A stretch of 12,430 nucleotides of DNA from a virus. Under the pieces are notes generated by a model. It saw only the letters and a program-made list of their open reading frames with translations. It was not told where the DNA came from and made no database searches. Below, piece by piece: positions 1 through 12,430 of the stretch. A program made the position numbers and the translations under genes. The DNA lies in the IMG/VR virus record IMGVR_UViG_3300045988_027468, one strand, 5' to 3'. Numbering within the stretch: the first letter of the stretch is position 1; the number at the start of each line of letters is the position of its first letter.

Positions 1-55
1 TTAACACTGTTAAAAATCACTAATTTTGTTAACTTTTCGTCTGTTTTTATTAACT
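1..55 (+). repeat. Terminal 55-bp unit, copy 1 of a direct repeat (copy 2 at 174-228; mirrored at 12376-12430 and 12203-12257)
   Basis: ttaacactgttaaaaatcactaattttgttaacttttcgtctgtttttattaact is identical at 1-55 and 174-228. It begins with the interrupted palindrome TTAACAcTGTTAA (1-13). Confidence 0.95.
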
Positions 56-173
56 AGGTACACAAGGCACCCTATTTTAACATTCCAACACATATTTAAC
101 AGTTGCTAACACTTTGGCACGCTTTTTGCTGTGTGCCGCAATTACGATTATTTAACACATTTAACATTGTTAA

Positions 174-228
174 TTAACACTGTTAAAAATCACTAATTTT
201 GTTAACTTTTCGTCTGTTTTTATTAACT
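174..228 (+). repeat. Internal copy of the terminal 55-bp unit, 173 bp inside the genome end
   Basis: Exact 55/55 match to 1-55. It is preceded by a third TTAACAtTGTTAA palindrome (161-173), which creates GTTAATTAAC at the junction (169-178). Confidence 0.95.
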
Positions 229-245
229 TTTGCCTGTCTATTATT

Positions 246-287
246 GTTTCACGTGGAACAACCTGTTAGTAATGTTTCACGTGAAAC
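246..287. promoter_or_regulatory. Pair of CACGTG-core palindromic sites at the inner ITR edge: GTTTCACGTGgAAC (246-259) and perfect GTTTCACGTGAAAC (274-287)
   Basis: The 14-bp perfect palindrome is read directly. The same 14-mer recurs at 5134-5147 and 12144-12157. Putative operator or protein-binding site; function is inferred only. Confidence 0.5.
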
Positions 288-339
288 TAAATGTTAACAG
301 ATATTAATTTTATTCTTTAAGATTTCTTAACAGAAAAAA

Positions 340-371
340 TTTGGTGGTTTCGCAAAAATGCAGTATCTTTG
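340..371 (+). promoter_or_regulatory. Left inward promoter, Bacteroides-type (-33 TTTG at 340-343, 20-nt spacer, -7 TAtcTTTG at 364-371)
   Basis: Matches the Bacteroides primary-sigma consensus TTTG / TAnnTTTG with 19-21 nt spacing. The 40-mer 338-377 is 34/40 identical to the reverse complement of 12054-12093. Confidence 0.6.
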
Positions 372-420
372 CAGCAGTTTTAGAAACAATATAAGTTTAA
401 CAATTTAAATTAAGGTAATT

Positions 421-588
421 ATGAACGAAAATTTTAATGAGACTGTTTTTAACTGCATCACTAGTGTTAACGCTTTGATGACTAGTAATGAGGTTACCAA
501 AGATGATAAGGCGGTTATCAAGTTGAACCGTTTTAAGAAGTGGTTGAATGAGTTTGCAGCCGCAAACGGTATGAACGAAGTTAAGTAG
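421..588 (+). CDS. Small hypothetical protein (55 aa, MNENFNETVF...NGMNEVK), first ORF downstream of the left promoter
   Basis: ATG 421 to TAG 586-588, read by hand and below the ORF-track length cutoff. It is co-oriented with the promoter and downstream genes. Coding status is uncertain because a 62-aa antisense ORF also exists here. Confidence 0.4.
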   Translation: MNENFNETVFNCITSVNALMTSNEVTKDDKAVIKLNRFKKWLNEFAAANGMNEVK

Positions 589-637
589 TTCACACCACAG
601 GTAACACGAAGTTTAACGTTAAATAATTTATAAAGTT

Positions 638-1003
638 ATGCCAAAAGGTTTTAGTTTTGCTAGTACTTTTAACAAGACTAGCTTTGGAATCGATACAACA
701 GATTTTCCATTTGTTAAGTTAACAGACATCTACAACAGCGAGAAAGATGGCGGCGGTGATGTGGTACACCCTATCAATGGTATGTACGTTCACAAATCAC
801 AATTGGGTGATTCACCTGTGATTATTGACGCTGAGAATAAGCGTTTAGTGAACTTACCACAGTTCACAGGTGACACGGTACGGGAGATTCTCGCTAACAG
901 TGACGCAGTAGAGGCGATTAAAGCCAACAAAGTTGGCTATACTATTTACGAATATGAATCGCACGCAAAGAAGTGTTACGGTATCACATTCGTTGATAAG
1001 TAG
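638..1003 (+). CDS. Hypothetical early protein (121 aa); by position a candidate ssDNA- or dsDNA-binding replication accessory protein
   Basis: Clean ORF ending in a double stop (TAG TAG) and followed by a hairpin. It lies upstream of the terminal protein/DNA polymerase pair, where phi29-like phages encode p5/p6. No motif recognised. Confidence 0.7.
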   Translation: MPKGFSFASTFNKTSFGIDTTDFPFVKLTDIYNSEKDGGGDVVHPINGMYVHKSQLGDSPVIIDAENKRLVNLPQFTGDTVREILANSDAVEAIKANKVGYTIYEYESHAKKCYGITFVDK

Positions 1004-1025
1004 TAGTTAGTGTAAGGTTGGTTTC

Positions 1026-1068
1026 ACAGGGGCGGCAAATTGATTTTTGTTTGCCCCTGTCTTTGTTT
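1026..1068 (+). terminator. Hairpin (acaggggc...gcccctgt) followed by a T-rich tract; possible intrinsic terminator or attenuator
   Basis: 8-bp GC-rich stem at 1026-1033 / 1053-1060, then ctttgttt. Confidence 0.45.
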
Positions 1069-1088
1069 AATTTAAATCTTTCTTTAAA

Positions 1089-1760
1089 ATGGCTAAACAG
1101 AATCCTATAGGGTTTACAAACAAAACGTTTGCACTTACTAGCAAAGTGCAATTAGATAAGCAAATATTAACTGCTGTAGAATCACGTGGGTATTTGCGTA
1201 AAGAGATTGCACGTGTATTTCAACAGGCAAACAGACGCATTCAGAACGTAGAAAAATCGGGTATAGTTTCGCCAGCTGTTGTTGCACTTAACAAAGGTAA
1301 TATAACAGGTTTCACAAAATTCTCTATGCGTCACAGTTGGGAAGATTTAAAGATTGAGTACGCCAAAGCGGTTTCTTTTTTACGTCAGCCAACATCTACT
1401 GCAACAGGTACGAAAGAATACGCAGAATACTTGAAAAAAGCCTATGATTTGGACGATAAAAGTTTTGCCCTTATGCAAAATAAGTTAATGGGTAAAATTG
1501 CAAGTGTTTCAGATGAGCGTTTTTTGGAACAGTACTTAATGCAATATAAAGATTTTACAGGTGAACTAGAACAGGAATCCAAAGACGTTTCAGACCAAAT
1601 CGAAGATGATGCAGTAAAAATTGAAAATGCCTTAGATGATGCCTTAGAGCAAATAGGCAATGACCCAAACGCAGAAGCATTTATTAATGACGTGGATTCC
1701 TATAATACAGATGAACCGTTAAAGCGTATATTAGACGAATTTAAAAAATTTGGTTTATAA
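1089..1760 (+). CDS. Putative terminal protein (TP) for protein-primed replication (223 aa)
   Basis: Immediately upstream of, and coupled by a TAATG overlap to, the protein-primed DNA polymerase gene, as in phi29 gene 3/gene 2. It has a basic N-terminal region (IARVFQQANRRIQNVEKSG) and a very acidic C-terminal third containing ..DVDSYNTDE.., which resembles the phi29 TP priming-loop context FDSEGN as recalled from memory. Confidence 0.6.
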   Translation: MAKQNPIGFTNKTFALTSKVQLDKQILTAVESRGYLRKEIARVFQQANRRIQNVEKSGIVSPAVVALNKGNITGFTKFSMRHSWEDLKIEYAKAVSFLRQPTSTATGTKEYAEYLKKAYDLDDKSFALMQNKLMGKIASVSDERFLEQYLMQYKDFTGELEQESKDVSDQIEDDAVKIENALDDALEQIGNDPNAEAFINDVDSYNTDEPLKRILDEFKKFGL

Positions 1761-3970
1761 TGAAGAAAATTCCCTTTGCACTACATACCGAAACGTTCAC
1801 GCCGAAAGATATTACAAAAGTTTTGTCTTTGGCTGTGAACGATAAGAATTTTACAGGAAACAATAAGGGTGAAAAGTTCTTAAACGTTCCTGTATCTTTC
1901 GATATAGAAACCACATCTTTTTACCGTGATGTGGACGGAGAAACTTACACCTATGACCGTTATATAAAATTGGGCGGTAAACAAACAAAGATGGAAAAAT
2001 GTTCTTTAATGTACGTTTGGCAATTTGGAATTAACGGTTATTGCATAATAGGTAGAACGTGGGACGAATTTATAACTATGCTGAATGAGATTTCAGACGT
2101 TTTAAACCTGTCTGAAAAGAAACGTATTATTATATACGTTCACAATTTAGCCTATGAGTTCCAATTTTTCAGAGAGTTATTGCAGTGGACAAAGGTTTTT
2201 TCAATAGACCTTAGAAAACCTATTTACGGAATAACTGAAAACGGTATAGAATTTAGATGTAGTTATCTGTTATCGGGTTATTCACTTGCAAAGTTAGGTG
2301 AACAATTACACAAATATAAATGTGAAAAGTTGGTCGGTGATTTAGATTACAGCCTGTTACGTCACAACAAAACACCGTTGACACAAAAAGAAATGGGTTA
2401 TTGTTTGAACGATATTAAAGTAGTTATGTGTTATATACAGGAACTAATCGAACAATATAAAAACATTACCCATTTACCGATAACGAAGACAGGTTTTGTG
2501 CGTAAATATTGCCGTTCTGTGTGTTTTAAGACAACAGACCCCGAAACAGGTAAAACCGTACAAAATTTTAAGTATTTGGATAAAATCCATAACTTAAATA
2601 TAACAGGTATGGAAGAATTTGAAATGCTACAAAGAGCCTTTTCGGGCGGTTTCACGCACGCAAACGCAAAGTACACAGATGAAGTTATAGAAAACGTAGA
2701 TAGTTACGATTTTACAAGTAGTTACCCCTATGTGATGGTAAGCGAAAAATTTCCTATGAGTACAGGCGTTTTCGTTCCTGTTAAGTCTATGAAACAATTT
2801 GAGTTTATGACCTCAAAATATTGCTGTGTCTTTGACGTGGAATTTACGAATATCTTTGCAAAATCAGATAACGAAAATCCAATATCGGTTAGTAAGTGTT
2901 TCGTAAAGGAAAACGTATCAGAAAATAACGGTCGTTTGGTTTGTGCTAGTAAGATATGTATGACAATTACCGAAATAGATTACAGGGTGTTTTCGCAGTT
3001 CTATATGTGGGAATCTGTGAGAATCGGCAAAATGATTTGTTACCGCAAAGAATATTTGCCAACAGAGTTTATTAAATCCATTTTGCACCTGTATGAAATG
3101 AAAACGAAACTAAAAGGGGTTAAGGGCAAAGAAGTTGAGTATTTGAATAGCAAAGAAATGCTGAATAGCTGTTACGGTATGAGTGTGACAAACCCTTTGC
3201 GTGATGAAATCGTCTGTGATGGTGAAATGTGGGACGTTGAGCATTTAACAGGTGAAAAACGCTTAGAAGTACTTAACAAATACAATGATAGCAAAAACCG
3301 TTTTCTTTTCTATCCGTGGGGAATATATGTAACAGCCTATGCACGTAGGAATCTTTTTACAGGTATTCTAGAATGCGGTGACGATTACATCTACAGTGAT
3401 ACAGACAGCGTTAAAATCAAGAACGGCGAAGACCACAAAGAGTATTTCAAAGCCTATAACGATTTGGCACAGCAAAAATTACGTGCAGCCTGTAAGTTTC
3501 ATAAAATACCGTTTGAAAAGGTTGAGCCTGTCACGATTAAGGGAATCGCAAAACCTTTGGGCGTTTGGGATTATGAGGGACGTTACACACGTTTTAAAAC
3601 TTTGGGTGCAAAACGTTATATGGTGCAGGAAAAAGGAGCGTTGACGGTAAACGGTAAAGATTACGATTACAGTTTGACGGTATCGGGTGTTAACAAGAAA
3701 TCTGCTATACCCTATATGTTAGAAACATTTGGGGAAAACGGAATCTTTGACGCTTTTACTAATTACTTAGATATTCCACCGTCTGCAACAGGTAAGAATA
3801 TACACACCTATGTAGATTATGAACAGAGTGGAACTATCACCGATTATTTGGGTACGGTTTCTACTTATGACACAAAAACAGGTGTTCATTTAGAGCCTAC
3901 AGGGTACACTTTGAGCCTGTCAGTACTTTATATAAATTATTTAATGGGAATCAGATTAAAGAAAGAATAA
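1760..3970 (+). CDS. Family B DNA polymerase, protein-primed type (736 aa)
   Basis: Motifs read from the translation: ExoI FDIETTS (D48/E50); ExoII HNLAYEFQF; ExoIII YCLNDIKVV; motif A DSYDFTSSYPYVM; motif B KEMLNSCYGMS; motif C YSDTDSV (nt 3392-3412); KxY LGAKRYMV. Confidence 0.97.
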   Translation: MKKIPFALHTETFTPKDITKVLSLAVNDKNFTGNNKGEKFLNVPVSFDIETTSFYRDVDGETYTYDRYIKLGGKQTKMEKCSLMYVWQFGINGYCIIGRTWDEFITMLNEISDVLNLSEKKRIIIYVHNLAYEFQFFRELLQWTKVFSIDLRKPIYGITENGIEFRCSYLLSGYSLAKLGEQLHKYKCEKLVGDLDYSLLRHNKTPLTQKEMGYCLNDIKVVMCYIQELIEQYKNITHLPITKTGFVRKYCRSVCFKTTDPETGKTVQNFKYLDKIHNLNITGMEEFEMLQRAFSGGFTHANAKYTDEVIENVDSYDFTSSYPYVMVSEKFPMSTGVFVPVKSMKQFEFMTSKYCCVFDVEFTNIFAKSDNENPISVSKCFVKENVSENNGRLVCASKICMTITEIDYRVFSQFYMWESVRIGKMICYRKEYLPTEFIKSILHLYEMKTKLKGVKGKEVEYLNSKEMLNSCYGMSVTNPLRDEIVCDGEMWDVEHLTGEKRLEVLNKYNDSKNRFLFYPWGIYVTAYARRNLFTGILECGDDYIYSDTDSVKIKNGEDHKEYFKAYNDLAQQKLRAACKFHKIPFEKVEPVTIKGIAKPLGVWDYEGRYTRFKTLGAKRYMVQEKGALTVNGKDYDYSLTVSGVNKKSAIPYMLETFGENGIFDAFTNYLDIPPSATGKNIHTYVDYEQSGTITDYLGTVSTYDTKTGVHLEPTGYTLSLSVLYINYLMGIRLKKE

Positions 3971-3971
3971 T

Positions 3972-5108
3972 ATGAAACAGAAGAAAGAAAAGGTGGAAAC
4001 ACCGAAATTTTATTCTTTGTCTAGAATCTTAGCAAAGAACGCAGACTATAACGTTATCTTTGGTGAACGTTCAAATGGTAAGACTTACGCAACCTTACTT
4101 TATGGAATCAAAGAATATTTGCGCACAGGAAAACAAATGGCGTATATTCGTAGATGGCGTGAAGATTTAAGGGGCAAACGTGCAGAAAGTTTGTTTGCAA
4201 ATCACGTTTCAAACGGTGTTATCGAAGAACTTACAAACGGTAAATTTAACGAAGTCTTTTACGTTTCGGGAAAATGGTTTCTTTCAAGCTATGACCCCGA
4301 AACAAAGAAACGTGTACCCGATAACGTACCGTTCTGTTTTGGTTTCTGTCTGTCAGAACAGGAACACGAAAAAAGTAGTAGTTATCCAAACATAACTACT
4401 ATTGTTTTCGATGAGTTTTTGACTAGACGTTATTATTTACCCGATGAATTTATGCTGTATATGAACCTGTTAAGTACTATCATAAGACAACGTAATGATG
4501 TTAAGGTTTTTATGTTGGGTAACACAGTAAACCAATTTTGCCCATATTTTACAGAAATGGGATTGAAACAGGTGCGAGTGATGGAACAGGGAACAATAGA
4601 TATTTATAAATTCGGTGAACACGGTGCAACCGTGGCTGTAGAATATTGTAGTACTATTGTTAAGCAAAAAGCGAGTAACAAATATTTCTGTTTCGATAAT
4701 CAGAACTTGCAGATGATTACGGGCGGTAAATGGGAACTCGCAGTTTATCCCCATTTGCCTGTGAAATATACCCCGAAAGATGTGCTTTTCGTTTTCTACA
4801 TACAGTTTAACGAAATGACATTACAGGGTAATATAATACAGGTTGAAACGTCAGACGGTGTTAATAACTTTATGTATATCCACAATAAGACCACACCGAT
4901 AAAAGACACAGAGAATAGTTTGATTTATTCACTTTGTATGAATGGAAAACCAAACTACAGACGCAAACTACTGTCAACAGCTAGTTACGTTGAATCTCAG
5001 ATAACGAAGTATTTCGCCACCGATAAGGTGTTTTATCAGAATAACGAAATCGGCGAAATTGTGCGAAACTACTTGATGGCTAGTAGCAGAAGTAATATTA
5101 TTACTTAA
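3972..5108 (+). CDS. DNA encapsidation (packaging) ATPase, phi29 gp16-like (378 aa)
   Basis: Walker A GERSNGKT and Walker B TTIVFDEF. Extended resemblance to recalled phi29 gp16 blocks (SYDRILNFVIGARGIGKSY..., YPNVSTIVFDEF..., LSNAVSVVNPYF). Confidence 0.9.
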   Translation: MKQKKEKVETPKFYSLSRILAKNADYNVIFGERSNGKTYATLLYGIKEYLRTGKQMAYIRRWREDLRGKRAESLFANHVSNGVIEELTNGKFNEVFYVSGKWFLSSYDPETKKRVPDNVPFCFGFCLSEQEHEKSSSYPNITTIVFDEFLTRRYYLPDEFMLYMNLLSTIIRQRNDVKVFMLGNTVNQFCPYFTEMGLKQVRVMEQGTIDIYKFGEHGATVAVEYCSTIVKQKASNKYFCFDNQNLQMITGGKWELAVYPHLPVKYTPKDVLFVFYIQFNEMTLQGNIIQVETSDGVNNFMYIHNKTTPIKDTENSLIYSLCMNGKPNYRRKLLSTASYVESQITKYFATDKVFYQNNEIGEIVRNYLMASSRSNIIT

Positions 5109-5120
5109 AATATGTTAAGA

Positions 5121-5162
5121 CAGGGTAAAAATTGTTTCACGTGAAACATTTTCCCTGTTTTA
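5121..5162 (+). terminator. Large imperfect hairpin (cagggtaaaaattgtttcac / gtgaaacattttccctg) followed by a T tract; terminator of the replication/packaging module
   Basis: The stem arms are read directly. The hairpin core is the 14-bp palindrome GTTTCACGTGAAAC (5134-5147). The T-rich run ttttatttgg follows. Confidence 0.6.
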
Positions 5163-5194
5163 TTTGGTCGTTTCAGATATTTTGTTTATCTTTG
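5163..5194 (+). promoter_or_regulatory. Middle promoter, Bacteroides-type (-33 TTTG 5163-5166, 20-nt spacer, -7 TAtcTTTG 5187-5194), driving the morphogenesis module
   Basis: Same architecture as the terminal promoters and the same flanks (ATTTGGTnGTTTC ... TATCTTTGCA). Confidence 0.6.
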
Positions 5195-5226
5195 CACCAT
5201 TAAATAACAAAGTTAAAATTTGCTAT

Positions 5227-5421
5227 ATGGATATAAACGCAATAGTATCGCTAGTTAGTAACGTGGGGTTTCCTGTTGCTGTCTGTATTGGTCTTTTCTT
5301 TTATATGGAGAAACAGAACGAACGCCACCAACAGGAAACCGATAAGTTAAACGAAACCGTACAGAGTAACACGAAAGTGTTAACAGAACTTTGTACATTA
5401 ATTAAAACACTTGTGAAGTAA
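5227..5421 (+). CDS. Small single-pass membrane protein (64 aa), candidate holin or YvrJ-like protein
   Basis: ATG at 5227 is preferred over the TTG at 5164, which would make the promoter coding. It has one hydrophobic helix (IVSLVSNVGFPVAVCIGLFFYM) followed by a charged, coiled-coil-like tail. Its stop overlaps the portal ATG (TAATG). Confidence 0.6.
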   Translation: MDINAIVSLVSNVGFPVAVCIGLFFYMEKQNERHQQETDKLNETVQSNTKVLTELCTLIKTLVK

Positions 5422-6575
5422 TGAAAAAAGAGAATCTTTATAACTTGTATCAAACACAGGTCAAAGACAAAGATACAGCTTTGGACACGTTCTTTCAGCG
5501 AGTTCTTTGTATGACCTCAAAGATGTTTGTGTACACAGGTTTGCCCGATTCGATTCCACAGATAGAACTTGAAAAGATTCTGCAAACTAGTGGAAATGTA
5601 GGAATCGCAAAAGTTAACGGTGAACTATATGCACTACAGGGAAACAGGGGTGGCAAATGTGATGCCTATTACAGGGGAAAAGATTTTATTGTCGCAAATC
5701 CGTGGCTAGAATTGAATAAAACGTACAATATCGGAAAAGATATTGTTGTTATCAATAACACACCGTTTGCAGATTCGATTCTCCCTGTTATCGGGAAATA
5801 TGGTGTACTTTACACAGACGCAGTTATTACTTTAAATATGACTAGCGTTTTAACTAGAATCACTATGTTAATATCTGCTAGTGATGATAAAACGAAACAG
5901 AGCGCAGAATCTTTCCTCAAAAAGATTCTGGACGGTGATTTCTCGGTAATTGGTGAAAATGCGTTTTTCAAAGGTGTTAATATGCAAACACCACCAACAC
6001 AGAGCAACCAGCAGATAACGCAGTTAATAGAACTTTTGCAGTACTATAAAGCGTCAATGTTTAACGATTTGGGGTTGAACGCAAACTATAATATGAAACG
6101 TGAACGTTTGAACACGCAAGAGGTTTCTATGAATATAGATGCGTTAATGCCTTATGTTGACGCAATGTTAACAGAACGTGTTGAGGGTGTTAAGCGAGTT
6201 AACGAAATGTTCGGTACAGACATTACCGTAACTTTGGGTTCTAGTTGGAAAATTGAACACGAAAATTATTTATCGTTACTCAAATCCACAGAAGAGGGGC
6301 ACGAACACACCGAAACAGAAGATGTTGACCCTGTAACCGAAAACGAAAATGAGGAAACAGATGAAACAGAAGAAACGCAAGAAACAGAAGAAACGGAAAC
6401 AGAAACAGAAGAAACAGAAGAAACAGAAGAAACGGAAACGGAAACAGAAGAAACAGAAGAAACAGAAGAAACGGAAACGGAAACAGAAGAAACAGAAGAA
6501 ACAGAAGAAACGGAAACGGAAACAGAAGAAACAGAAGAAACAGAAGAGGAAAAGGAAAACAAAGATGAAGATTAA
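5421..6575 (+). CDS. Portal (head-tail connector) protein, phi29 gp10-like, with a roughly 90-aa acidic Glu/Thr low-complexity C-terminal extension (384 aa)
   Basis: Block resemblance to recalled phi29 gp10 (LP..I....LEK.L...G.VG; vvINNtpFa; N...K+ER+.T.EVS.N; N+.+G..+.V). The C-terminus is ...ETEETEETEETETE... repeated. Confidence 0.8.
   Translation: MKKENLYNLYQTQVKDKDTALDTFFQRVLCMTSKMFVYTGLPDSIPQIELEKILQTSGNVGIAKVNGELYALQGNRGGKCDAYYRGKDFIVANPWLELNKTYNIGKDIVVINNTPFADSILPVIGKYGVLYTDAVITLNMTSVLTRITMLISASDDKTKQSAESFLKKILDGDFSVIGENAFFKGVNMQTPPTQSNQQITQLIELLQYYKASMFNDLGLNANYNMKRERLNTQEVSMNIDALMPYVDAMLTERVEGVKRVNEMFGTDITVTLGSSWKIEHENYLSLLKSTEEGHEHTETEDVDPVTENENEETDETEETQETEETETETEETEETEETETETEETEETEETETETEETEETEETETETEETEETEEEKENKDED
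6390..6545 (+). repeat. Tandem repeat, 39-bp unit x4 (gaaacggaaacggaaacagaagaaacagaagaaacagaa), inside the portal 3' end
   Basis: Units start at 6390 (1 mismatch), 6429, 6468 and 6507 (three identical). Each is in frame and encodes ETETETEETEETE. They sit within a broader GAA/ACN-rich tract, about 6316-6560. Confidence 0.9.
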
Positions 6576-7134
6576 AGAATTTTTCACGGTGGATAACGGA
6601 TTGTTTGAAACCATTTTTGAGCCTAATTTTCCTGTTTTGTACAAATCGATTTTCGGTGAAGACATACCAAACTTAATCGATATTGATTTGCGTTTCAAAT
6701 ATGGAAATAGGGAACTAGTTGACGCTATCACAAATGAAACTGCGACCGATATTATTAAAGGTATCATTACAGTTAAGTTTGACGAATGGCAAAAACAGAT
6801 TCAAGTGTTTAATAACGAATATGATGTGTTAAACCCTGTCACGTCAAAAGAAACAGTTACAGAAAGTAACACCGTTGACGAAACAGGAAATAATAACACT
6901 ATCGATTCAAGTGTAACTTTTAACAATGGGGAATTTGGCAATGACACGAAACAGCAAAGAGATACCACAGGGAACAGACAAGAGACACGCACGAAGACAA
7001 GTAGTAAAAGCGGTATTCCGTCTAGCGTTCCTGTTAGTGAAATTATTCAAAAAGAAATGAATCTCAGAAAAACCAACTTTAAAACACAGGTGGTAACAGA
7101 GATTGCAAAAGAAATTAGTTTAGATATTTATTAA
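6565..7134 (+). CDS. Hypothetical virion protein (189 aa); candidate lower collar/head-tail adaptor or scaffold
   Basis: ATG 6565 overlaps the portal stop by 11 nt. It lies directly after the portal, as gp11 follows gp10 in phi29. The central T/S/N/G-rich segment is suggestive of an extended beta-hairpin. No motif recognised. Confidence 0.65.
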   Translation: MKIKEFFTVDNGLFETIFEPNFPVLYKSIFGEDIPNLIDIDLRFKYGNRELVDAITNETATDIIKGIITVKFDEWQKQIQVFNNEYDVLNPVTSKETVTESNTVDETGNNNTIDSSVTFNNGEFGNDTKQQRDTTGNRQETRTKTSSKSGIPSSVPVSEIIQKEMNLRKTNFKTQVVTEIAKEISLDIY

Positions 7135-7153
7135 TTCTTAAATTTTATATAAA

Positions 7154-8338
7154 ATGGAAGTAAAACAAATTTATACGCTTATTAATAGCGTTTCATCTGA
7201 GGTTTTGGGTAAAACTGATTTGGTACACGAAGACCTCACAGGTATTGTTGATTTGGGTAATGAGGTATTCAATCAGAATGCCGTGGACAATTACGTAAAG
7301 TCACTTGTAAACCATATCGGAAAAGTGGTTTTCGTAAACCGTCCTTATTCGGGCAAAGTTCCATCTGTTTTAATGGATGCGTGGGAATTTGGTTCTGTTT
7401 TGGAAAAGATTTCAGCAGACGTTCCACAGGCTGAGGAAAACGATAGCTGGAATCTCAAAGACGGTACAGAGTACAAACAGGACGTGTTCCACAAGCCAAC
7501 CGTTTCCGCTAAGTTCTTTAACTCAAAGGTAACTTTTGAAGTTCCTGTTTCTATCACAGAACGACAGGTTAAAGAATCTTTCAGCAGTGCTGCACAGTTG
7601 AACGGTTTCCTGTCTATGATTTATAACGCTGTTGAGAAATCAATGACCATCAAGACAGACGCTTTGGTGATGCGTACAATTAACAATATGATTGCGGAAA
7701 CTTTGGACGCAGACAAGACCGCCTTTGGCTTTGTTCCATCTACCAACGAAACAGTAGACTACAGCACAGCTAGCACTGTTAGATGTGTGAATCTGTTGAA
7801 ACTTTACAAAGATAAGACAGGTACAACACTTACAGTGGACGCAGCAATCACAACACCCGACTTTATCAGATTTGCAGCCTACACAATGGGCTTGTACTCA
7901 GACCGTTTGCAGACCATTTCCACCCTGTTTAACGTAGGTGGTAAAGAGCGTTTCACACCAAAGGACGTTTTGCACACAGTTCTTTTGAGTGACTTTGCAG
8001 CCGCTGCAAAAACTTATCTGTATGCCGACACGTTCCACGAGGATAACGTGCTTTTGCCAAAGGCTGAAACCGTGGCAAGTTGGCAAGCTACAGGCAAAGA
8101 TTATGCCTTTGACCACGTTTCAAAGATTGATGTGAAATCTGCTAGCGGTGCTAGTGTTTCTATCGGTGGTGTGTTGGGTGTGATGTTTGACCGTGACGCT
8201 TTGGGTGTTACAAATCTTGACAAGCGAGTAACAACCAACTATAACGCAAAGGCTGAGTTTTTCAATAACTATTACAAGTTCGATGCAGGTTATTTCAATG
8301 ACACAAATGAGAACTTTGTAGTCTTCTTTATCGCCTAA
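7154..8338 (+). CDS. Major capsid protein, phi29 gp8-like (394 aa)
   Basis: Resemblance to recalled phi29 gp8 blocks: DNYVKSLVNHIGKVVF vs NDFITSLVDRIGLVVI; LNGFLSMIYNAVEKS vs FESFVSSIINAIYNS; FFNNYYKF vs YWNYYYHV. Followed by the strongest terminator hairpin in the window. Confidence 0.85.
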   Translation: MEVKQIYTLINSVSSEVLGKTDLVHEDLTGIVDLGNEVFNQNAVDNYVKSLVNHIGKVVFVNRPYSGKVPSVLMDAWEFGSVLEKISADVPQAEENDSWNLKDGTEYKQDVFHKPTVSAKFFNSKVTFEVPVSITERQVKESFSSAAQLNGFLSMIYNAVEKSMTIKTDALVMRTINNMIAETLDADKTAFGFVPSTNETVDYSTASTVRCVNLLKLYKDKTGTTLTVDAAITTPDFIRFAAYTMGLYSDRLQTISTLFNVGGKERFTPKDVLHTVLLSDFAAAAKTYLYADTFHEDNVLLPKAETVASWQATGKDYAFDHVSKIDVKSASGASVSIGGVLGVMFDRDALGVTNLDKRVTTNYNAKAEFFNNYYKFDAGYFNDTNENFVVFFIA

Positions 8339-8358
8339 TTTGGGTTGTTTAACTGTTG

Positions 8359-8400
8359 AGGGTGTTTTCCTGTAGTTGATAGCACGGGAAACACCCTTTT
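8359..8400 (+). terminator. Intrinsic terminator after the capsid gene
   Basis: The stem gggtgttttcc (8360-8370) pairs with gggaaacaccc (8386-8396) with one bulge, and is followed by tttt. Confidence 0.7.
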
Positions 8401-8413
8401 AAACTTTAAAGGT

Positions 8414-8857
8414 ATGATTAAAATTAAAACGTTTAACTATGACGGTAAACCAAACGAAGTAAACAAAACCCTACAGGAAAACAGCGAGTACACAGGGTTG
8501 TTAAATGCTAGTTTTAATGTGCTAACACCTGTAGTAAGATTCAGAATTCGCACACCTGTAACGTTTAATTATGTTTATATCGAAAGTTTAAACCGTTATT
8601 ATTTCGTGAAAGAAATTTCACAAGATGGTGACTTATGCACGGTACGTTTAAAAGTGGACGTTCTTTTCACGTACAAAGATAAAATACTCGCTAGTAGTGG
8701 AACGTTGACACAGGGTGAAAACGTTAACAAATATCTTTCAAACCGTGCAAACGTGGTTGATGTACGACCAAACGTAAGAAAGTTAGATTTTCCGAATAAG
8801 GAACTATTGAACGAAACAGGTAGTATTATTATGGTAACTATAAAAGGTAATAAGTAA
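8414..8857 (+). CDS. Hypothetical tail protein (147 aa); resembles the N-terminal block of phi29 gp9 tail-knob/tube proteins
   Basis: NYVYIESLNRYYFVKEISQDGDLCTVRLKVDVLFTY compared with recalled gp9 [41 protein letters not shown]. The stop overlaps the next ATG (TAATG). Confidence 0.65.
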   Translation: MIKIKTFNYDGKPNEVNKTLQENSEYTGLLNASFNVLTPVVRFRIRTPVTFNYVYIESLNRYYFVKEISQDGDLCTVRLKVDVLFTYKDKILASSGTLTQGENVNKYLSNRANVVDVRPNVRKLDFPNKELLNETGSIIMVTIKGNK

Positions 8858-10728
8858 TGGCAAGTTATAAAATTAATTATCACTTAACAAACTGTACTAC
8901 TACAGCCGCAAGTAGTGAAAATTACGACACAGACGGTAATGTTATAAAGTTTTGCGGAAAAGCTGTTGACGGTTGTTATTTTTTACCAAATGACGGTGAC
9001 TATAATTATATTTCACGTCTGAGTGGTGGAACAACAAAAGTTACACATTTTAATCTGTCACGTGTTTCTGCTAGTGACAACTCAAAAGTTATTAGCGGTG
9101 ATATTGACGGTATTTCATCAGATGGCAAGTATTTTTCAAAACGTTTGACGTTTGGAACAGCCAACAGCGGTGAAATGGAATGTTACTTAAACGCACGTGG
9201 TGGAACACCTACAGTTAAAACGTTAAAGATACACAATAACGTTTCGGGAACAAATGCCGTTTCGGTGCAAAACGATACAAATTTCGATATTACGTTGACA
9301 GGTGACACAGACGGTACTTTTACGGTTGTTCCTGTAGTTACTTACAAGAACACGTATAACGAAACCGCACAGGGAACAATGAACGTTAAAGGTAACGTAG
9401 CTACATTTAGTGTTCCTGTAGAAACAAACGAAGAGGTAACAATAAACGGAACGTTCACACCGAAACCGAAAGAGTTAACAATAACAAACCACGTTTCGGG
9501 AACTACTGCAACCTATGTGCAAAACGGTGAAAATTTCGATATTACGTTGACAGGTAACACAGATGGTAGTTTTTCTGTTGTTCCTGTAGTTTCGTATAAA
9601 AACGAAAGTGGAACGGAAACCACAGATGAAATGAACGTTAACGGTAAAACAGCTACATTTAGTGTACCTGTTGCGACAAACGACACAGTAACCATTACAG
9701 GAACGTTTAAACCCGAAAAGCCACAGAAAAACGTTCCTATTACTTATGCGTTGACAAATTGTACCGTTTCACCACAGCCACAGACAGTTAAAACAGGGGA
9801 AACTTTAAACTTGACTGTCACACCTGTTATCAATTACAAACTAGATTCGTGCAATCTTATTTGGAATGACGGAACGAAAGATATTACGATAAGTGTTACA
9901 GGTGGTGTTATTTCGTTCCCTGTGCCCGATTCTTGCGTTTCTGTGACGATTAAAGCTGTAGCTAGTATAATAACGCCTGTTGGTAGAAATTATGGTGCTA
10001 TAAACGTTTATTGCGTGACGCTTGACAATTTGGACGCATTTTCTAAACAGCGTTTCTTTGAAATAAAAGATGATACACAGGGAATCTATGAAGAGGTTAA
10101 TTTAGGAATCTATGTAAATCGTATCAAACGCATTTTCACAAACGTTCCTGTATCGGGGTCGGATTCTTTGCGGTGTGGTAACTACAACACAGGTATAACG
10201 GTACAAACACCCGAAAAAGACATTATAATGCTAGACTTTGGCAATGTGACGTTAACAGGTTTGAACGGTGATTCGGAAGACTATAACGCACAAATTTCGG
10301 TGTTCATTCCGTGCCGTGGCTTTGTCGCTATAGATAGTAAGTATATCGGTAAAACGGTAAACCTATCTTTCAAAGTGAACGTTATTACAGGTGATGCGGT
10401 AGCGTTTTTGTCCTGTGATGGCGTTATCTTTCAGTTAGAAAGTTTTTCTTTGTCACGTGATGTTATTTACAAGACAGGAACAACAGAACTTAATATCGTA
10501 GGCGGTACGCAATGGGACGAACAAATTTTGTATGGTTTAGAACCTTATGTTATTATCACGCAGAACACTACAATAAACAAGCCTGTGAACAATACACAGG
10601 AAACCGTAACAATAGGGGACGTGACAGGCTACGCACAGTTTGAAAACGTAGATTTGAACACGGTTAATTTGTTGGTCGATGAGTATAACACCATTATTTC
10701 AGAACTTGAAAACGGTGTTTATCTATAA
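8857..10728 (+). CDS. Multi-domain tail protein (623 aa): probable receptor-binding/tail-knob protein with tandem beta-sandwich-like repeats
   Basis: Two adjacent ~84-aa repeats (aa 121-204 and 205-289). Two further modules both open with an LTNCT motif (aa 10-14 and 299-303). The C-terminal end GYAQFENVDLN..EYNTIISELENGVYL resembles the recalled gp9 C-terminus NYVQTKD..DLQEIRTIFDNGITLW. Confidence 0.8.
   Translation: MASYKINYHLTNCTTTAASSENYDTDGNVIKFCGKAVDGCYFLPNDGDYNYISRLSGGTTKVTHFNLSRVSASDNSKVISGDIDGISSDGKYFSKRLTFGTANSGEMECYLNARGGTPTVKTLKIHNNVSGTNAVSVQNDTNFDITLTGDTDGTFTVVPVVTYKNTYNETAQGTMNVKGNVATFSVPVETNEEVTINGTFTPKPKELTITNHVSGTTATYVQNGENFDITLTGNTDGSFSVVPVVSYKNESGTETTDEMNVNGKTATFSVPVATNDTVTITGTFKPEKPQKNVPITYALTNCTVSPQPQTVKTGETLNLTVTPVINYKLDSCNLIWNDGTKDITISVTGGVISFPVPDSCVSVTIKAVASIITPVGRNYGAINVYCVTLDNLDAFSKQRFFEIKDDTQGIYEEVNLGIYVNRIKRIFTNVPVSGSDSLRCGNYNTGITVQTPEKDIIMLDFGNVTLTGLNGDSEDYNAQISVFIPCRGFVAIDSKYIGKTVNLSFKVNVITGDAVAFLSCDGVIFQLESFSLSRDVIYKTGTTELNIVGGTQWDEQILYGLEPYVIITQNTTINKPVNNTQETVTIGDVTGYAQFENVDLNTVNLLVDEYNTIISELENGVYL
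9217..9723 (+). repeat. Intragenic tandem duplication (~252 bp x2: 9217-9468 and 9469-9723) encoding two related ~84-aa domains
   Basis: KTLKIHNNVSGTNAVSVQNDTNFDITLTGDTDGTFTVVPVVTYKN...ATFSVPVETNEEVTINGTFTPKP versus KELTITNHVSGTTATYVQNGENFDITLTGNTDGSFSVVPVVSYKN...ATFSVPVATNDTVTITGTFKPEKP. Confidence 0.9.
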
Positions 10729-10730
10729 AA

Positions 10731-10766
10731 GAAAAGGGACGGTAACAAATACCGCCCCTTTTTTCT
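10731..10766. terminator. Bidirectional intrinsic terminator between the convergent rightward and leftward modules
   Basis: The stem gggacgg (10736-10742) pairs with ccgcccc (10752-10758) with one mismatch. It is flanked by gaaaa upstream and tttttt downstream, so a U-run follows the hairpin in both orientations. Confidence 0.7.
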
Positions 10767-11011
10767 TATTTGCTATAAAATTCATTCATCAAACCTTTTT
10801 TGCAAAGGAAATCGAAACAGCGGTTTTTAATGCCCTTTTCCTGTTCCAAACAGTTAGAAAGATATTCTATAACTTTCTTCTGTGCCTGTAGTGTATCGAT
10901 TACAGAGTTAAGCAATAAACCGTTACCGCCTGTAGTGTTTTCTGATACAAACTTTAAATTGTCAATGGATACTGAAATGGAATCCTGTAAAACTTTAAAA
11001 CCCTTTTCCAT
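10766..11011 (-). CDS. Hypothetical protein (81 aa), last gene of the leftward module
   Basis: The ATG lies 3 nt after the endolysin stop and the ORF ends at the bidirectional terminator. No TM segment or motif recognised. Confidence 0.55.
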   Translation of the reverse strand: MEKGFKVLQDSISVSIDNLKFVSENTTGGNGLLLNSVIDTLQAQKKVIEYLSNCLEQEKGIKNRCFDFLCKKGLMNEFYSK

Positions 11012-11014
11012 AAC

Positions 11015-11437
11015 TTATTTCTTTTCTAAGTTCATAATAATCTGTTGACGTGGTTTGCCGTTACGTGGTGCGACTGAAACGTGAAACCAAAAACTTGTAG
11101 AACCTTTGCGGTGTTCTTTGATTAATTGGTCAAAACCGCCTGTTTCTCTCAGAACCTTTTCCAAAGATTTCATATCAGAGCAAATCAAATCGGCGGCTAA
11201 ACCCTTTTGGTGTTGACTGTTAGAAACACCCCCTACAGCCTTATTTAACACAGGACATCTAAAACCGCTAGAAATCAGAATCGGTTTACCTACCTTCTCA
11301 CGGATGCCGTCTAAATAATCGGCTAACTTATTCAAGTTATCTACTACCTCAAATGTAGGGGTGTTGTCAATACGCAAACGTTTTGCGGTTGCTGAGTTCA
11401 AAAACTCAGATAAGCTAAAATACTTAATCTTTTTCAT
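11015..11437 (-). CDS. Endolysin, zinc peptidase of the M15 family (Peptidase_M15_3-like cell-wall peptidase), 140 aa
   Basis: The signature SGFRCPVLNKAVGGVSNSQHQKGLAADL plus a downstream WFHVS gives the H-x6-D...H zinc-ligand pattern typical of M15 phage lysins. Confidence 0.88.
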   Translation of the reverse strand: MKKIKYFSLSEFLNSATAKRLRIDNTPTFEVVDNLNKLADYLDGIREKVGKPILISSGFRCPVLNKAVGGVSNSQHQKGLAADLICSDMKSLEKVLRETGGFDQLIKEHRKGSTSFWFHVSVAPRNGKPRQQIIMNLEKK

Positions 11438-11639
11438 ATTTCTTTTCTGTTGGTGAAATTACAAACCATTTACGGCTATCTTTGTGTGTCGGGAATCTAC
11501 CTTTTACAGTTATAGAACAATCCCCCGAAAGATAGTCTATTTTGTTGTTAAAGAACTCGCTTACTTTGTCAGAACGTACCATATAAACGGTAACGTTATT
11601 AACCTGTTTCAAAGTGATTTTAAAATAACTATGTTCCAT
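11424..11639 (-). CDS. Hypothetical protein (71 aa)
   Basis: ORF co-oriented with the module. It overlaps the endolysin start by 14 nt. No motif recognised. Confidence 0.55.
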   Translation of the reverse strand: MEHSYFKITLKQVNNVTVYMVRSDKVSEFFNNKIDYLSGDCSITVKGRFPTHKDSRKWFVISPTEKKYEKD

Positions 11640-11655
11640 ATTTATATTTGTTTAT

Positions 11656-11680
11656 GCCTGTGAGTGTTACCCCCACAGGC
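11656..11680 (-). other. Intercistronic hairpin (gcctgtg / cacaggc, 11-nt loop) between the 108-aa and 71-aa genes
   Basis: 7-bp stem read directly. No U-run follows it on the minus-strand transcript, so it is not a canonical terminator. It may be an RNA stability or attenuation element. Confidence 0.3.
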
Positions 11681-11688
11681 TGTTAATA

Positions 11689-12015
11689 TTAACCGATTCT
11701 TTCGCTAGTCTGAATAAGCTGCAAGAATGTACTTGCGTCTTTGCCCAATTTGTTGCACAGCTGAGTAACACAACAACCATATTCTGAAATGTAGTTCAAA
11801 CTATCTTTTGATTCAAAGATAGTATATACATCTTTTGTTAATTTTGGTAAGGTGTTATGCTTGATACAGTTAATTTCGTGCTCATACATTACCTTTGCTA
11901 CATCTGCAAAAACACCCTCTACTATTTGAGTGTTACGTGAAATTTCACTTTTTACACATGTACCGTTAGCAGATATAACGGTTTCAAATTCTAGTGTAAT
12001 TTTATACTTTGCCAT
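11689..12015 (-). CDS. Hypothetical protein (108 aa), first gene of the leftward right-end module
   Basis: The ATG lies about 45 nt downstream of the right promoter -7 box. No motif recognised. Confidence 0.65.
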   Translation of the reverse strand: MAKYKITLEFETVISANGTCVKSEISRNTQIVEGVFADVAKVMYEHEINCIKHNTLPKLTKDVYTIFESKDSLNYISEYGCCVTQLCNKLGKDASTFLQLIQTSERIG

Positions 12016-12059
12016 AATCTTATTATTTAACTGTTTGACTTATTTTTTAATTTCTGCTG

Positions 12060-12091
12060 CAAAGATACGACTTTTTCACGAAACTACCAAA
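12060..12091 (-). promoter_or_regulatory. Right inward promoter, Bacteroides-type (minus strand: -33 TTTG = 12088-12091, 20-nt spacer, -7 TAtcTTTG = 12060-12067)
   Basis: The reverse complement reads aatttggtagtttcgtgaaaaagtcgtatctttgcagcag, 34/40 identical to the left promoter 338-377. Confidence 0.6.
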
Positions 12092-12143
12092 TTATTTTTG
12101 TTAATAGTTCTTAAATTAAAAATTTTAATCTTTTTAACAAAAC

Positions 12144-12185
12144 GTTTCACGTGAAACATTACTAACAGGTTGTTCCACGTGAAAC
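12144..12185. promoter_or_regulatory. Mirror pair of CACGTG-core palindromes in ITR-R: GTTTCACGTGAAAC (12144-12157) and GTTcCACGTGAAAC (12172-12185)
   Basis: Read directly. They sit 53 nt upstream of the right promoter -33 element, the same distance as on the left. Confidence 0.5.
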
Positions 12186-12430
12186 AATAATAGACAGGCA
12201 AAAGTTAATAAAAACAGACGAAAAGTTAACAAAATTAGTGATTTTTAACAGTGTTAATTAACAATGTTAAATGTGTTAAATAATCGTAATTGCGGCACAC
12301 AGCAAAAAGCGTGCCAAAGTGTTAGCAACTGTTAAATATGTGTTGGAATGTTAAAATAGGGTGCCTTGTGTACCTAGTTAATAAAAACAGACGAAAAGTT
12401 AACAAAATTAGTGATTTTTAACAGTGTTAA
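12144..12430. repeat. Right inverted terminal repeat (ITR-R), 287 bp
   Basis: Perfect reverse complement of 1-287. The window ends exactly at the repeat end, as expected for a complete linear replicon. Confidence 0.95.

Follow-up and report, generated by a model that had tools for sequence, protein, structure and literature searches.

Is the 12,430-nt stretch of viral DNA deposited as IMG/VR record IMGVR_UViG_3300045988_027468 (here called the window, meaning that whole stretch) a complete genome, what kind of phage does it encode, and in which bacteria does that phage live? We consider it quite probable that the window is the essentially complete linear genome, ~12.3 kb long, of an uncultured human-gut podophage from the Astrithrvirus-like branch of phi29-related phages; this degree of confidence is a joint one for the whole explanation, taking in identity, ends, operons, host and the parS sites described below. 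The lineage itself and its five parS sites are new, while the clade of tiny phi29-type phages around it was known already.

Gene content and affiliation

Between its terminal repeats the window holds 15 tightly packed open reading frames (ORFs), in agreement with the count of about 15 genes made in a first-pass annotation. Five of them score above the curated Pfam cut-offs (DNA_pol_B_2, Podovirus_Gp16, Phage_connector, Phi29_MCP and Peptidase_M15_3), with PHROGs in agreement, and these include the phi29-type trio of gp16-type ATPase (PF05894), gp10-type connector (PF05352) and capsid protein (PF25622). The Pfam and PHROG matches bear out the earlier proposal of a minimal, protein-primed podophage gene set of phi29 type. 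The polymerase reaches 57.5 bits against PF03175 (cut-off 25.8) and E = 5e-71 against PHROG 1907, is 46% identical to the polymerase of phage astrithr and carries the exonuclease and polymerase motifs DIE, YCLND, DFTSSYP, KEMLNSCYG, YSDTDS and KRY. In the ATPase, the Walker A and Walker B motifs read GERSNGKT and IVFDE, respectively. No transfer RNA genes were found in the window, the GC content of which is 36%.

That the hallmark proteins would retrieve phi29 families held for polymerase, ATPase, portal and capsid protein but not for the candidate terminal protein, which is unlike phi29 gp3. This 223-residue protein is homologous to astrithr gp02, to Phanie 0020 and to a 199-residue protein of Vibrio K58, and has 3,379 metagenomic homologues; its S61 and T104 are invariant and are candidates for the priming residue. 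The astrithr-group homologue is annotated as the counterpart of phi29 p3 in the review by Evseev et al. (2024), and from this homology and the position of the gene we infer that it is the terminal protein.

Megablast of the whole window against a collection of 50,697 phage records gave no match, and blastn against the Astrithrvirus group covers 5–10% of the window (68% identity for the 10%). With a genus threshold of ~70% genome-wide, the window does not therefore belong to the genus Astrithrvirus; judged on these nucleotide comparisons, its lineage is a separate genus or higher-level lineage. At the protein level the relationship is closer. The capsid protein retrieves full-length matches of 55–59% identity in phages of 10.4–11.9 kb (Salmonella astrithr, Astrid and assan, Shigella, Enterobacter Entb_47, Pectobacterium DU_PP_III, Acinetobacter Phanie and Vibrio K58 g2) and groups with the Astrithrvirus capsid proteins in a phylogeny, of the kind that had been called for; the other phi29-like gut phages retrieved by the same search have 23–33% identity. 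BLASTP pairs nine window proteins with these relatives, among them the terminal protein candidate, polymerase, ATPase, membrane protein, portal, 189-residue protein, capsid protein and 147-residue protein. The description of the phage as part of a distinct and poorly described group thus stands as far as a new lineage outside Astrithrvirus is concerned, but the lineage lies inside a known, reviewed clade. IMG/VR alone contains 335 relatives of the window, 80 of them with at least 88% capsid protein identity; apart from their deposition, the literature that could be searched shows no characterisation of them. The exact capsid protein of the window is also present in the Logan assembly of SRR413737.

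True ends of the genome

The two ends of the window are perfectly reverse-complementary across exactly 287 nt, and beyond this a weaker end-to-end similarity (72%) reaches ~nt 377 and takes in a duplicated promoter. The first-pass annotation held that the window begins and ends exactly at this repeat and expected read coverage to stop at positions 1 and 12430. The perfect repeat is there, but the genome does not end where the contig does; the true termini lie ~53 nt inside each contig end. Positions 1–55 are an exact copy (100%) of positions 174–228 and, in mirror image, 12376–12430 are an exact copy of 12203–12257. For comparison, 80 IMG/VR relatives and 15 contigs from metagenome-assembled genomes (MAGs) were collected and 71 ends were counted. 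Of these, 63 stop at, or have an Illumina adapter fused to, 5'-AAAGGTACAC: 44 stop at 5'-(A)AAGGTACAC, also written 5'-(A)AAGGTACACAAGGCAC, and in a further 19 the adapter ...GTGCTCTTCCGATCT is joined directly to AAAGGTACAC. Where the adapter is always joined to the same base, the DNA molecule physically ended there. Only eight ends, the window's two among them, have other sequence ahead of AAAGGTACAC. In the window the true-end sequence starts at position 54–57, with GGTACAC from position 57. The nearest relatives, L019 and L043, have unrelated prefixes of 53–54 nt at the very point where the window has its extra 55 nt, and 55 is a standard k-mer length of the assembler SPAdes. Taken together, the exact internal copies, the relatives' ends, the unrelated prefixes and the k-mer length identify the outermost 55 nt of each contig end as an assembly tip artefact that overwrote the terminal AA.

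It is very improbable that the contig ends are real after all, either as a 287-nt repeat starting TTAACACTG or through a true tandem duplication of a 173-bp terminal unit. Some reads must support the junction from 228 to 56, and the (174–228)(56–228) layout has the look of a collapsed tandem duplication; however, a duplicate of exactly 55 nt, the common end point of the relatives with its ligated adapters and the differing prefixes of the nearest relatives all speak for the artefact.

After trimming, the genome is 12,324 bp long with a repeat of 234 nt, inside the ranges of the 25 relatives that have both true ends (11,574–12,682 bp, with repeats of 117–383 nt). The genome is thus linear, is bounded by inverted terminal repeats and starts with a reiterated base, the 5'-AAAGG being read from the 63 relatives' ends; this terminus resembles the AAAGTA of phi29. 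Replication would start from both ends by protein priming, and the reiterated AAA would permit sliding-back in the manner of phi29. A circular or prophage element is ruled out by the terminal repeats, by the adapter-capped ends in relatives and by the lack of an integrase.

Adapter remnants (Illumina TruSeq or Nextera) are present at the ends of ten IMG/VR contigs (L031, L035, L038, L049, L057, L071, L079, L086, L091 and L092). Many 'inverted repeats' of public contigs have k-mer lengths (55, 99, 119 or 141) and are therefore limited by the assembler and not by biology, and many of the IMG/VR relatives are truncated inside the terminal repeat. Completeness calls made from terminal repeats can thus mask k-mer-length artefacts, and the adapter remnants in public contigs can be used for locating true genome ends.

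Promoters and translation signals

The pattern TTTG-N17-21-TAnnTTTG is found six times in the window against an expectation of 1.05, and none of 200 shuffles reached six. The window has just three long intergenic regions, and each holds one of the matches, with a spacer of N19/20, directed at its gene block (Table 1); these three positions recur in nearly all of the 80 relatives. A TAnnTTTG box with TTTG at −33 corresponds to the consensus for sigma-ABfr of Bacteroides that is quoted in PMC7366714. The box is also present at the same place of the late operon in the divergent relatives L006, L007, L008, L014 and L091; among divergent lineages it varies as TATC-, TACC-, TATA-, TACA-, TATT- and TAAC-TTTG, so that only TA and TTTG are fixed.

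In the regions upstream of the window genes, no Shine–Dalgarno signal was found. The mean energy of the anti-Shine–Dalgarno duplex is −0.9 to −1.6 kcal/mol in the window, against a background of −1.3 kcal/mol, and −1.2 kcal/mol for 825 genes of the 80 relatives. Bacteroides phage B124-14, the positive control, gives −1.6 kcal/mol, the negative controls astrithr and phi29 give −5.6 and −7.6, and Phanie gives −6.8. The Bacteroidota pattern is an enrichment of adenine at −3, −6 and −11 to −15. In start regions of the window type, as in those of B124-14, adenine is most frequent from −14 to −11 and position −3 is a purine; the signal at −6 is weak. In relatives that use Shine–Dalgarno sequences the peak is one of guanine, from −13 to −9, and the promoters are of the TTGACA-N17-TATAAT type. 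The earlier statement that three promoters fit the Bacteroides consensus and that no start codon has a Shine–Dalgarno sequence is confirmed by the excess of matches and by duplex energies near background. In a neighbour-joining tree of the capsid protein, the lineages without Shine–Dalgarno sequences form one clade nested among the lineages that use them, which is what a single shift of host phylum would produce.

These signals suggest a simple plan of expression. Three operons would each be read from a host-sigma-factor promoter of Bacteroidota type: a left one with the replication and packaging genes, a central, late one comprising holin, portal, collar, capsid and knob, and a right one for the lysin and small proteins. 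A single bidirectional terminator is predicted to close both the late and the right operon.

parS sites

We searched for parS as a 16-bp palindrome with at most one mismatch to TGTTNCACGTGNAACA, the consensus as used in PMC10197239. There are five such sites in the window where 0.00 are expected, each matching the pan-bacterial consensus at 16/16 or 15/16 positions. Their placement is conserved in almost all relatives, with two to three sites per subterminal region and one central site, and every site of the window adjoins a promoter. The same scan recovers exactly the five known parS sites of phi29 and finds none in astrithr, Phanie, Vibrio K58 or Bacteroides phage B124-14. The genus Salmonella is not known to have chromosomal ParABS. 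Absence from the Salmonella-infecting relatives and from B124-14 indicates that the sites are no by-product of composition. ParABS homologues and the parS consensus have been reported in gut Bacteroidetes (PMC10197239), and the review by Evseev et al. (2024) does not mention parS for the Astrithrvirus-like group.

phi29 uses Spo0J at its parS sites to get its genome into spores. On the strength of sequence identity and conservation, the five sites described here are predicted to recruit the host ParB, which could allow the linear genome to segregate alongside the host chromosome in a non-lytic carrier phase, as that of phi29 does with Spo0J. In a wider scenario, which we put forward tentatively, a monophyletic branch of the Astrithrvirus-like phages crossed into Bacteroidota, rewired all of its expression signals, gained 5–15 host-type parS sites per 12 kb and persists, with its linear genome capped by terminal protein, as a ParABS-segregated episome in a carrier state. 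If this is true, the spore-entrapment trick of phi29 would be extended to non-sporulating gut anaerobes, and it could help to explain the prevalence of the lineage in human gut metagenomes.

Host

The host is probably a member of the Bacteroidota, most likely a gut Bacteroidales bacterium. Translation without Shine–Dalgarno sequences and the start-region signature, A-rich at −11 to −14 with a purine at −3, point in this direction. Among homologues from cultured phages, the lysin is nearest to those of Bacteroides fragilis siphophages (45–48% identity), with the lysins of Achromobacter phages nearly equal at 44%. The expression signals and the lysin agree with the first-pass annotation, which had claimed a Bacteroidota-infecting lineage, although the host is read from sequence signals only. 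Its accompanying remark that characterised phi29-like phages mostly infect Firmicutes does not take in the closest cultured relatives, whose hosts are Proteobacteria. The gut virome catalogue papers gave no host call specific to this lineage, and a literature search on Shine–Dalgarno usage in Melainabacteria turned up nothing usable.

A 23,329-nt NCBI contig (L101; GCA_001292545.1, CYGL01000287.1) was considered as a host junction and set aside, as it is probably a chimera of a copy of the window phage and a second, unrelated phi29-like phage. This second phage is of Gram-positive type, with holin_4_1, CW_7 and Amidase_5 domains.

Alternative explanations

The same phage might have a host outside Bacteroidota, for example Gastranaerophilales (Melainabacteria) or another gut lineage that uses few Shine–Dalgarno sequences. 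The two closest relatives in the genome collection (capsid protein identity 96% and 93%) were binned, in independent studies, in MAGs of Melainabacteria/Gastranaerophilales, the GC content of the phage is below that of typical Bacteroides, and TATCTT with TTGGTG 17 nt ahead can, by our own reading, be taken as a weak generic sigma-70 promoter. Yet clade members without Shine–Dalgarno sequences were also binned in MAGs of Bacillota, which are strong Shine–Dalgarno users, so the binning is noisy. Across divergent lineages the invariant part of the promoter box is the TTTG at positions 5–8, which fits TAnnTTTG and not TATAAT; the adenine peak is the same as in the Bacteroides phage control, the lysin is nearest to Bacteroides phage lysins, and a sister lineage of 44% GC was binned with Prevotella. 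We regard such a host as unlikely, with a similarly low probability for Gastranaerophilales and for another taxon. As to the bins of the two closest relatives (L004 and L005), they may be composition-driven mis-binning or a hint of the host. A different doubt concerns the CACGTG palindromes, which might not be centromere sites but operators for a phage or host regulator, or terminator or attenuator hairpins. In addition to the position of all sites beside promoters, the central one tips a hairpin of −19 kcal/mol with a T-run that ends the left operon, and the divergent relative L014 (11,840 nt, also without Shine–Dalgarno sequences) has 15 parS-like sites, 11 of them intergenic and most lying 10–25 nt upstream of start codons. 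The hairpin-tip location and the proximity to starts make a regulatory or RNA-level role possible. Against this, the palindromes are identical to parS and share their motif with the functional phi29 sites, those within the terminal repeats have no T-run, and Salmonella-infecting relatives and B124-14 lack them. We hold the purely regulatory explanation to be a possibility of limited weight, and operator and parS roles could coexist.

Whether the phage is autonomous is a further question. Phanie is a satellite whose capsids must dock on the tail of a helper myophage, and this dependence is perhaps general in the clade (Evseev et al., 2024). By analogy, the capsids encoded in the window, with a short stub tail, would become infectious only by docking on a contractile tail supplied by an unrelated helper. 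The window phage shares its clade with Phanie, and also the plan of the tail, which combines a short collar with a knob divided between a 147-residue protein and a large one with Ig domains and lacks any recognisable fibre or spike. However, the 623-residue tail protein has no BLAST similarity to gp10 of Phanie or of astrithr, the Salmonella Astrithrviruses are regarded as non-satellite (preprint), and nothing in the window sequence identifies a helper; dependence on one seems to us rather doubtful.

The reading that we prefer, an Astrithrvirus-like phage of Bacteroidota with parS sites that recruit ParB, has several observations against it in addition to the hairpin at the central site and the start-codon proximity in L014. 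No packaging RNA (pRNA) was detected, an Rfam scan of the window giving only four chance-level matches at E ≤ 1; pRNA is known only from phi29 and related Bacillus phages (Evseev et al., 2024), so its absence may not exclude membership of the wider group. The candidate terminal protein showed no similarity to phi29 gp3 by profile or hhalign and nothing significant among all PDB sequences, and its AlphaFold2 model, with a predicted local distance difference test (pLDDT) score of 40, is unusable. The role given to the parS sites comes from sequence identity and conservation only. MAG binning of the relatives is inconsistent (Melainabacteria twice, Prevotella and several Bacillota). Finally, the only relative studied experimentally, Phanie, depends on a helper, so the window phage may not be autonomous.

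Gene map and further features

The coordinates of all features are given in Table 1.

Table 1 Genes, repeats and signals of the window, in order of position
Feature	Position	Strand	Remarks
Assembly artefact, left	1–55		55-nt copy of 174–228 ahead of the true terminus
Real left inverted terminal repeat	56–287	+	True 5' end AAAGGTACAC; its first two A's (54–55) overwritten by the artefact
TTAACA hexamer cluster	77–402, mirrored at right end		15 copies in first 402 nt, 3 of them within the 55-nt artefact
TGGCACG-N4-TTGC box	115–129 (+), mirror 12302–12316	inward-pointing	~62 nt from each true end
parS TGTTTCACGTGGAACA	245–260		ParB/Spo0J-binding consensus; identical to phi29 parS core
parS TGTTTCACGTGAAACT	273–288		One mismatch
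Left early promoter	340–371	+	−33 TTTG, 20-nt spacer, −7 TATCTTTG; conserved island in alignment of ends
55-residue early protein	421–588	+	No family match
121-residue conserved early protein	638–1003	+	Homologues in lineages with and without Shine–Dalgarno sequences
Candidate terminal protein, 223 residues	1089–1760	+	Directly upstream of polymerase gene, 1-base overlap
Protein-primed family-B DNA polymerase, 736 residues	1760–3970	+	Pfam DNA_pol_B_2 E = 1.5e-15
gp16-type DNA packaging ATPase, 378 residues	3972–5108	+	Pfam Podovirus_Gp16 E = 2e-23
Likely left-operon terminator, hairpin and T-run	5116–5162	+	−19.3 kcal/mol; central parS 5133–5148 at tip
Central parS TGTTTCACGTGAAACA	5133–5148		Tip of left-operon terminator hairpin
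Late promoter	5163–5194	+	−33 TTTG, 20-nt spacer, −7 TATCTTTG
Holin-like membrane protein, 64 residues	5227–5421	+	PHROG 4898 holin E = 6.6e-8; weak BhlA holin match
gp10-type portal/upper collar, 384 residues	5421–6575	+	Pfam Phage_connector E = 1.3e-13; PHROG 2038
189-residue protein, probable shortened lower collar (gp11 counterpart)	6565–7134	+	Homologous to astrithr gp07 and Vibrio K58 0004
Major capsid protein, 394 residues	7154–8338	+	Pfam Phi29_MCP E = 5e-55
147-residue N-terminal tail-knob part (putative split knob)	8414–8857	+	Profile against PDB sequences: phage C1 4EO2, phi29 gp9 5FB4
Distal tail protein, 623 residues	8857–10728	+	Three tandem Ig-like beta-sandwich domains, conserved C-terminal part
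Bidirectional intrinsic terminator	10732–10762		13-bp stem then T-run, −18 kcal/mol; between converging operons
81-residue protein	10766–11011	−	ORF only
M15 peptidase endolysin, 140 residues	11015–11437	−	Pfam Peptidase_M15_3 E = 1e-19; PHROG 894
71-residue protein	11424–11639	−	ORF only
108-residue right-end early protein	11689–12015	−	ORF only
Right early promoter	12060–12091	−	−33 TTTG, 20-nt spacer, −7 TATCTTTG
Two parS sites, right end	12143–12158 and 12171–12186		Mirror of left pair
Real right inverted terminal repeat	12144–12375	−	Mirror of left repeat
Assembly artefact, right	12376–12430		Mirror copy of left 55-nt artefact

The terminal regions contain two further elements. TTAACA occurs 62 times genome-wide against 25.5 expected, with half of the copies within the two terminal regions, and several copies fall in blocks conserved across the ends of 34 relatives; these hexamers are candidate iteron-like sites for the phage origin or for a DNA-binding protein. 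The TGGCACG-N4-TTGC box matches the sigma-54 −24/−12 consensus perfectly, and no block of the terminal repeat is better conserved than the one that contains it. The box is present in 44 loci, among them L014, which has two copies in tandem within a repeat that cannot otherwise be aligned; it may serve as a promoter or, at the replication origin, as a binding site for a protein.

In the left operon, the 121-residue protein had no match in Pfam, PHROGs or PDB sequences, profile search included, and is possibly a DNA-binding or replication accessory protein. The ExoII motif of the polymerase (nt 2144–2158, residues 129–133) reads NLAYE, with glutamate where NLKFD of phi29 has the catalytic aspartate. 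The arms ACAGGG/CCCTGT that flank the hairpin at the end of the operon are also present in L091.

In the late operon, a 64-residue holin-like protein ahead of the portal is kept in astrithr, Phanie and Vibrio K58. The C-terminal tail of the portal (nt 6306–6575) is an acidic E/T tandem repeat of low complexity. Such a tail is found clade-wide at lengths of 33–152 residues, the repeat unit and length varying between lineages; that of the window has 104 residues against the 71–82 usual in close relatives. Assembly seems to break at this repeat, as many public contigs of the window phage have lengths of ~6.1 kb or ~5.6 kb. The ORF that follows is open from 6349 to 7134, but the lysine-rich N-terminal extension (6349–6564) is the acidic repeat read in another frame, and the real start is therefore most likely the ATG at 6565. 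The resulting 189-residue protein is probably the lower collar, following the assignment of Evseev et al. (2024); hhalign of its family against phi29 gp11 was weak (E = 0.027) and a profile search of PDB sequences gave nothing significant.

The profile of the 147-residue protein matches the major tail protein of phage C1 (4EO2, N-terminal part of the knob) with E = 0.0025, and its family aligns with residues 91–126 of phi29 gp9 (hhalign E = 3e-4), indicating that the knob is probably split. The next gene encodes the 623-residue tail protein, with its immunoglobulin (Ig)-like domains at ~nt 9214–9966, a region that includes a 252-nt duplication. Its AlphaFold2 model is confident for residues 120–370 only, with pLDDT of 70–92 across the first two Ig-like domains and the greater part of the third. 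Relatives share the C-terminal half, which presumably corresponds to that of the knob; the model of residues 370–623 failed. There was no tblastn match to the protein in the INPHARED phage collection and none among PDB sequences, and hhalign against phi29 gp9 was not significant. With both the terminal and the tail protein, AlphaFold2 was hampered by a homologue search that yields nothing below 92–97% identity, all of it from this hyper-abundant clade. Pfam, PHROG and phage-collection searches of the window found no recognisable fibre or spike gene.

Significance

The analysis ties a very common uncharacterised human-gut lineage, with hundreds of near-complete genomes in IMG/VR and thousands of protein sequences in metagenomes, to an experimentally tractable group, the smallest tailed phages. 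The split in Shine–Dalgarno usage on one capsid tree offers a compact natural case of the re-tooling of promoters and translation after a jump between host phyla, as well as a cheap signal for host prediction. For a 'virulent' phage that lacks an integrase, the conservation of the parS sites suggests a mechanism of persistence that can be tested.

Comparison with known systems

Among the closest records is IMGVR_UViG_3300045988_026025 (L019 above), with 93% nucleotide identity over 100% of the window and the same genes, promoters and parS positions; by this measure the two are of the same species or genus cluster.

The Astrithrvirus-like phages (cluster 23 of Evseev et al., 2024) are described there as phi29-related phages of Gram-negative bacteria with genomes of 11–14 kb, a shortened lower collar, a two-gene knob and no recognisable fibres. 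Their genomes, like that of the window, are linear (10.4–11.9 kb) with terminal inverted repeats, and the genes come in the same order: small ORF, terminal protein, PolB, ATPase, small membrane protein, portal with acidic tail, collar of ~185 residues, capsid, knob part of ~147 residues, large tail protein and leftward small genes. Behind the capsid protein (55–59%), identities fall to 51–54% for the ATPase, 43–47% for the polymerase and 36–38% for the portal. They differ in their Proteobacteria hosts, strong Shine–Dalgarno sequences, sigma-70 promoters and lack of parS, and in ending with GGCTAGGG or GGGTTATCC where the window phage has AAAGGTACAC. For lysis they encode, on the plus strand, an amidase or unspecified endolysin, against the minus-strand M15 peptidase of the window. 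BLAST shows no relationship between their large tail protein and that of the window, which also has one early gene more than they do.

A Bacteroidales-infecting phi29-like phage has been proposed before, in Bacteriophage sp. isolate 2692_55609 (cluster 30), which was placed with Amedibacillus phage AD70P2 (Evseev et al., 2024). It is likewise a metagenomic phi29-like genome of ~12 kb from human faeces with a split knob, but it belongs to a different lineage and has a GC content of 42.5%. Human-faecal records that stand beside Amedibacillus phages have 23–33% capsid identity to the window, and 2692_55609 was not identified among them.

phi29 itself (Salasmaviridae) is larger, at 19.3 kb, with a repeat of 6 nt, and has a pRNA, scaffold, head fibres, appendages, a one-piece knob, the p4/p6 regulators and strong Shine–Dalgarno sequences, which were not found in the window. 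What the two have in common is the protein-primed PolB, the gp16 ATPase, the gp10 connector, the Phi29-type capsid protein and the 5'-AAAG terminus, together with an early–late–early layout of converging operons around a bidirectional terminator and five parS sites with the same core.

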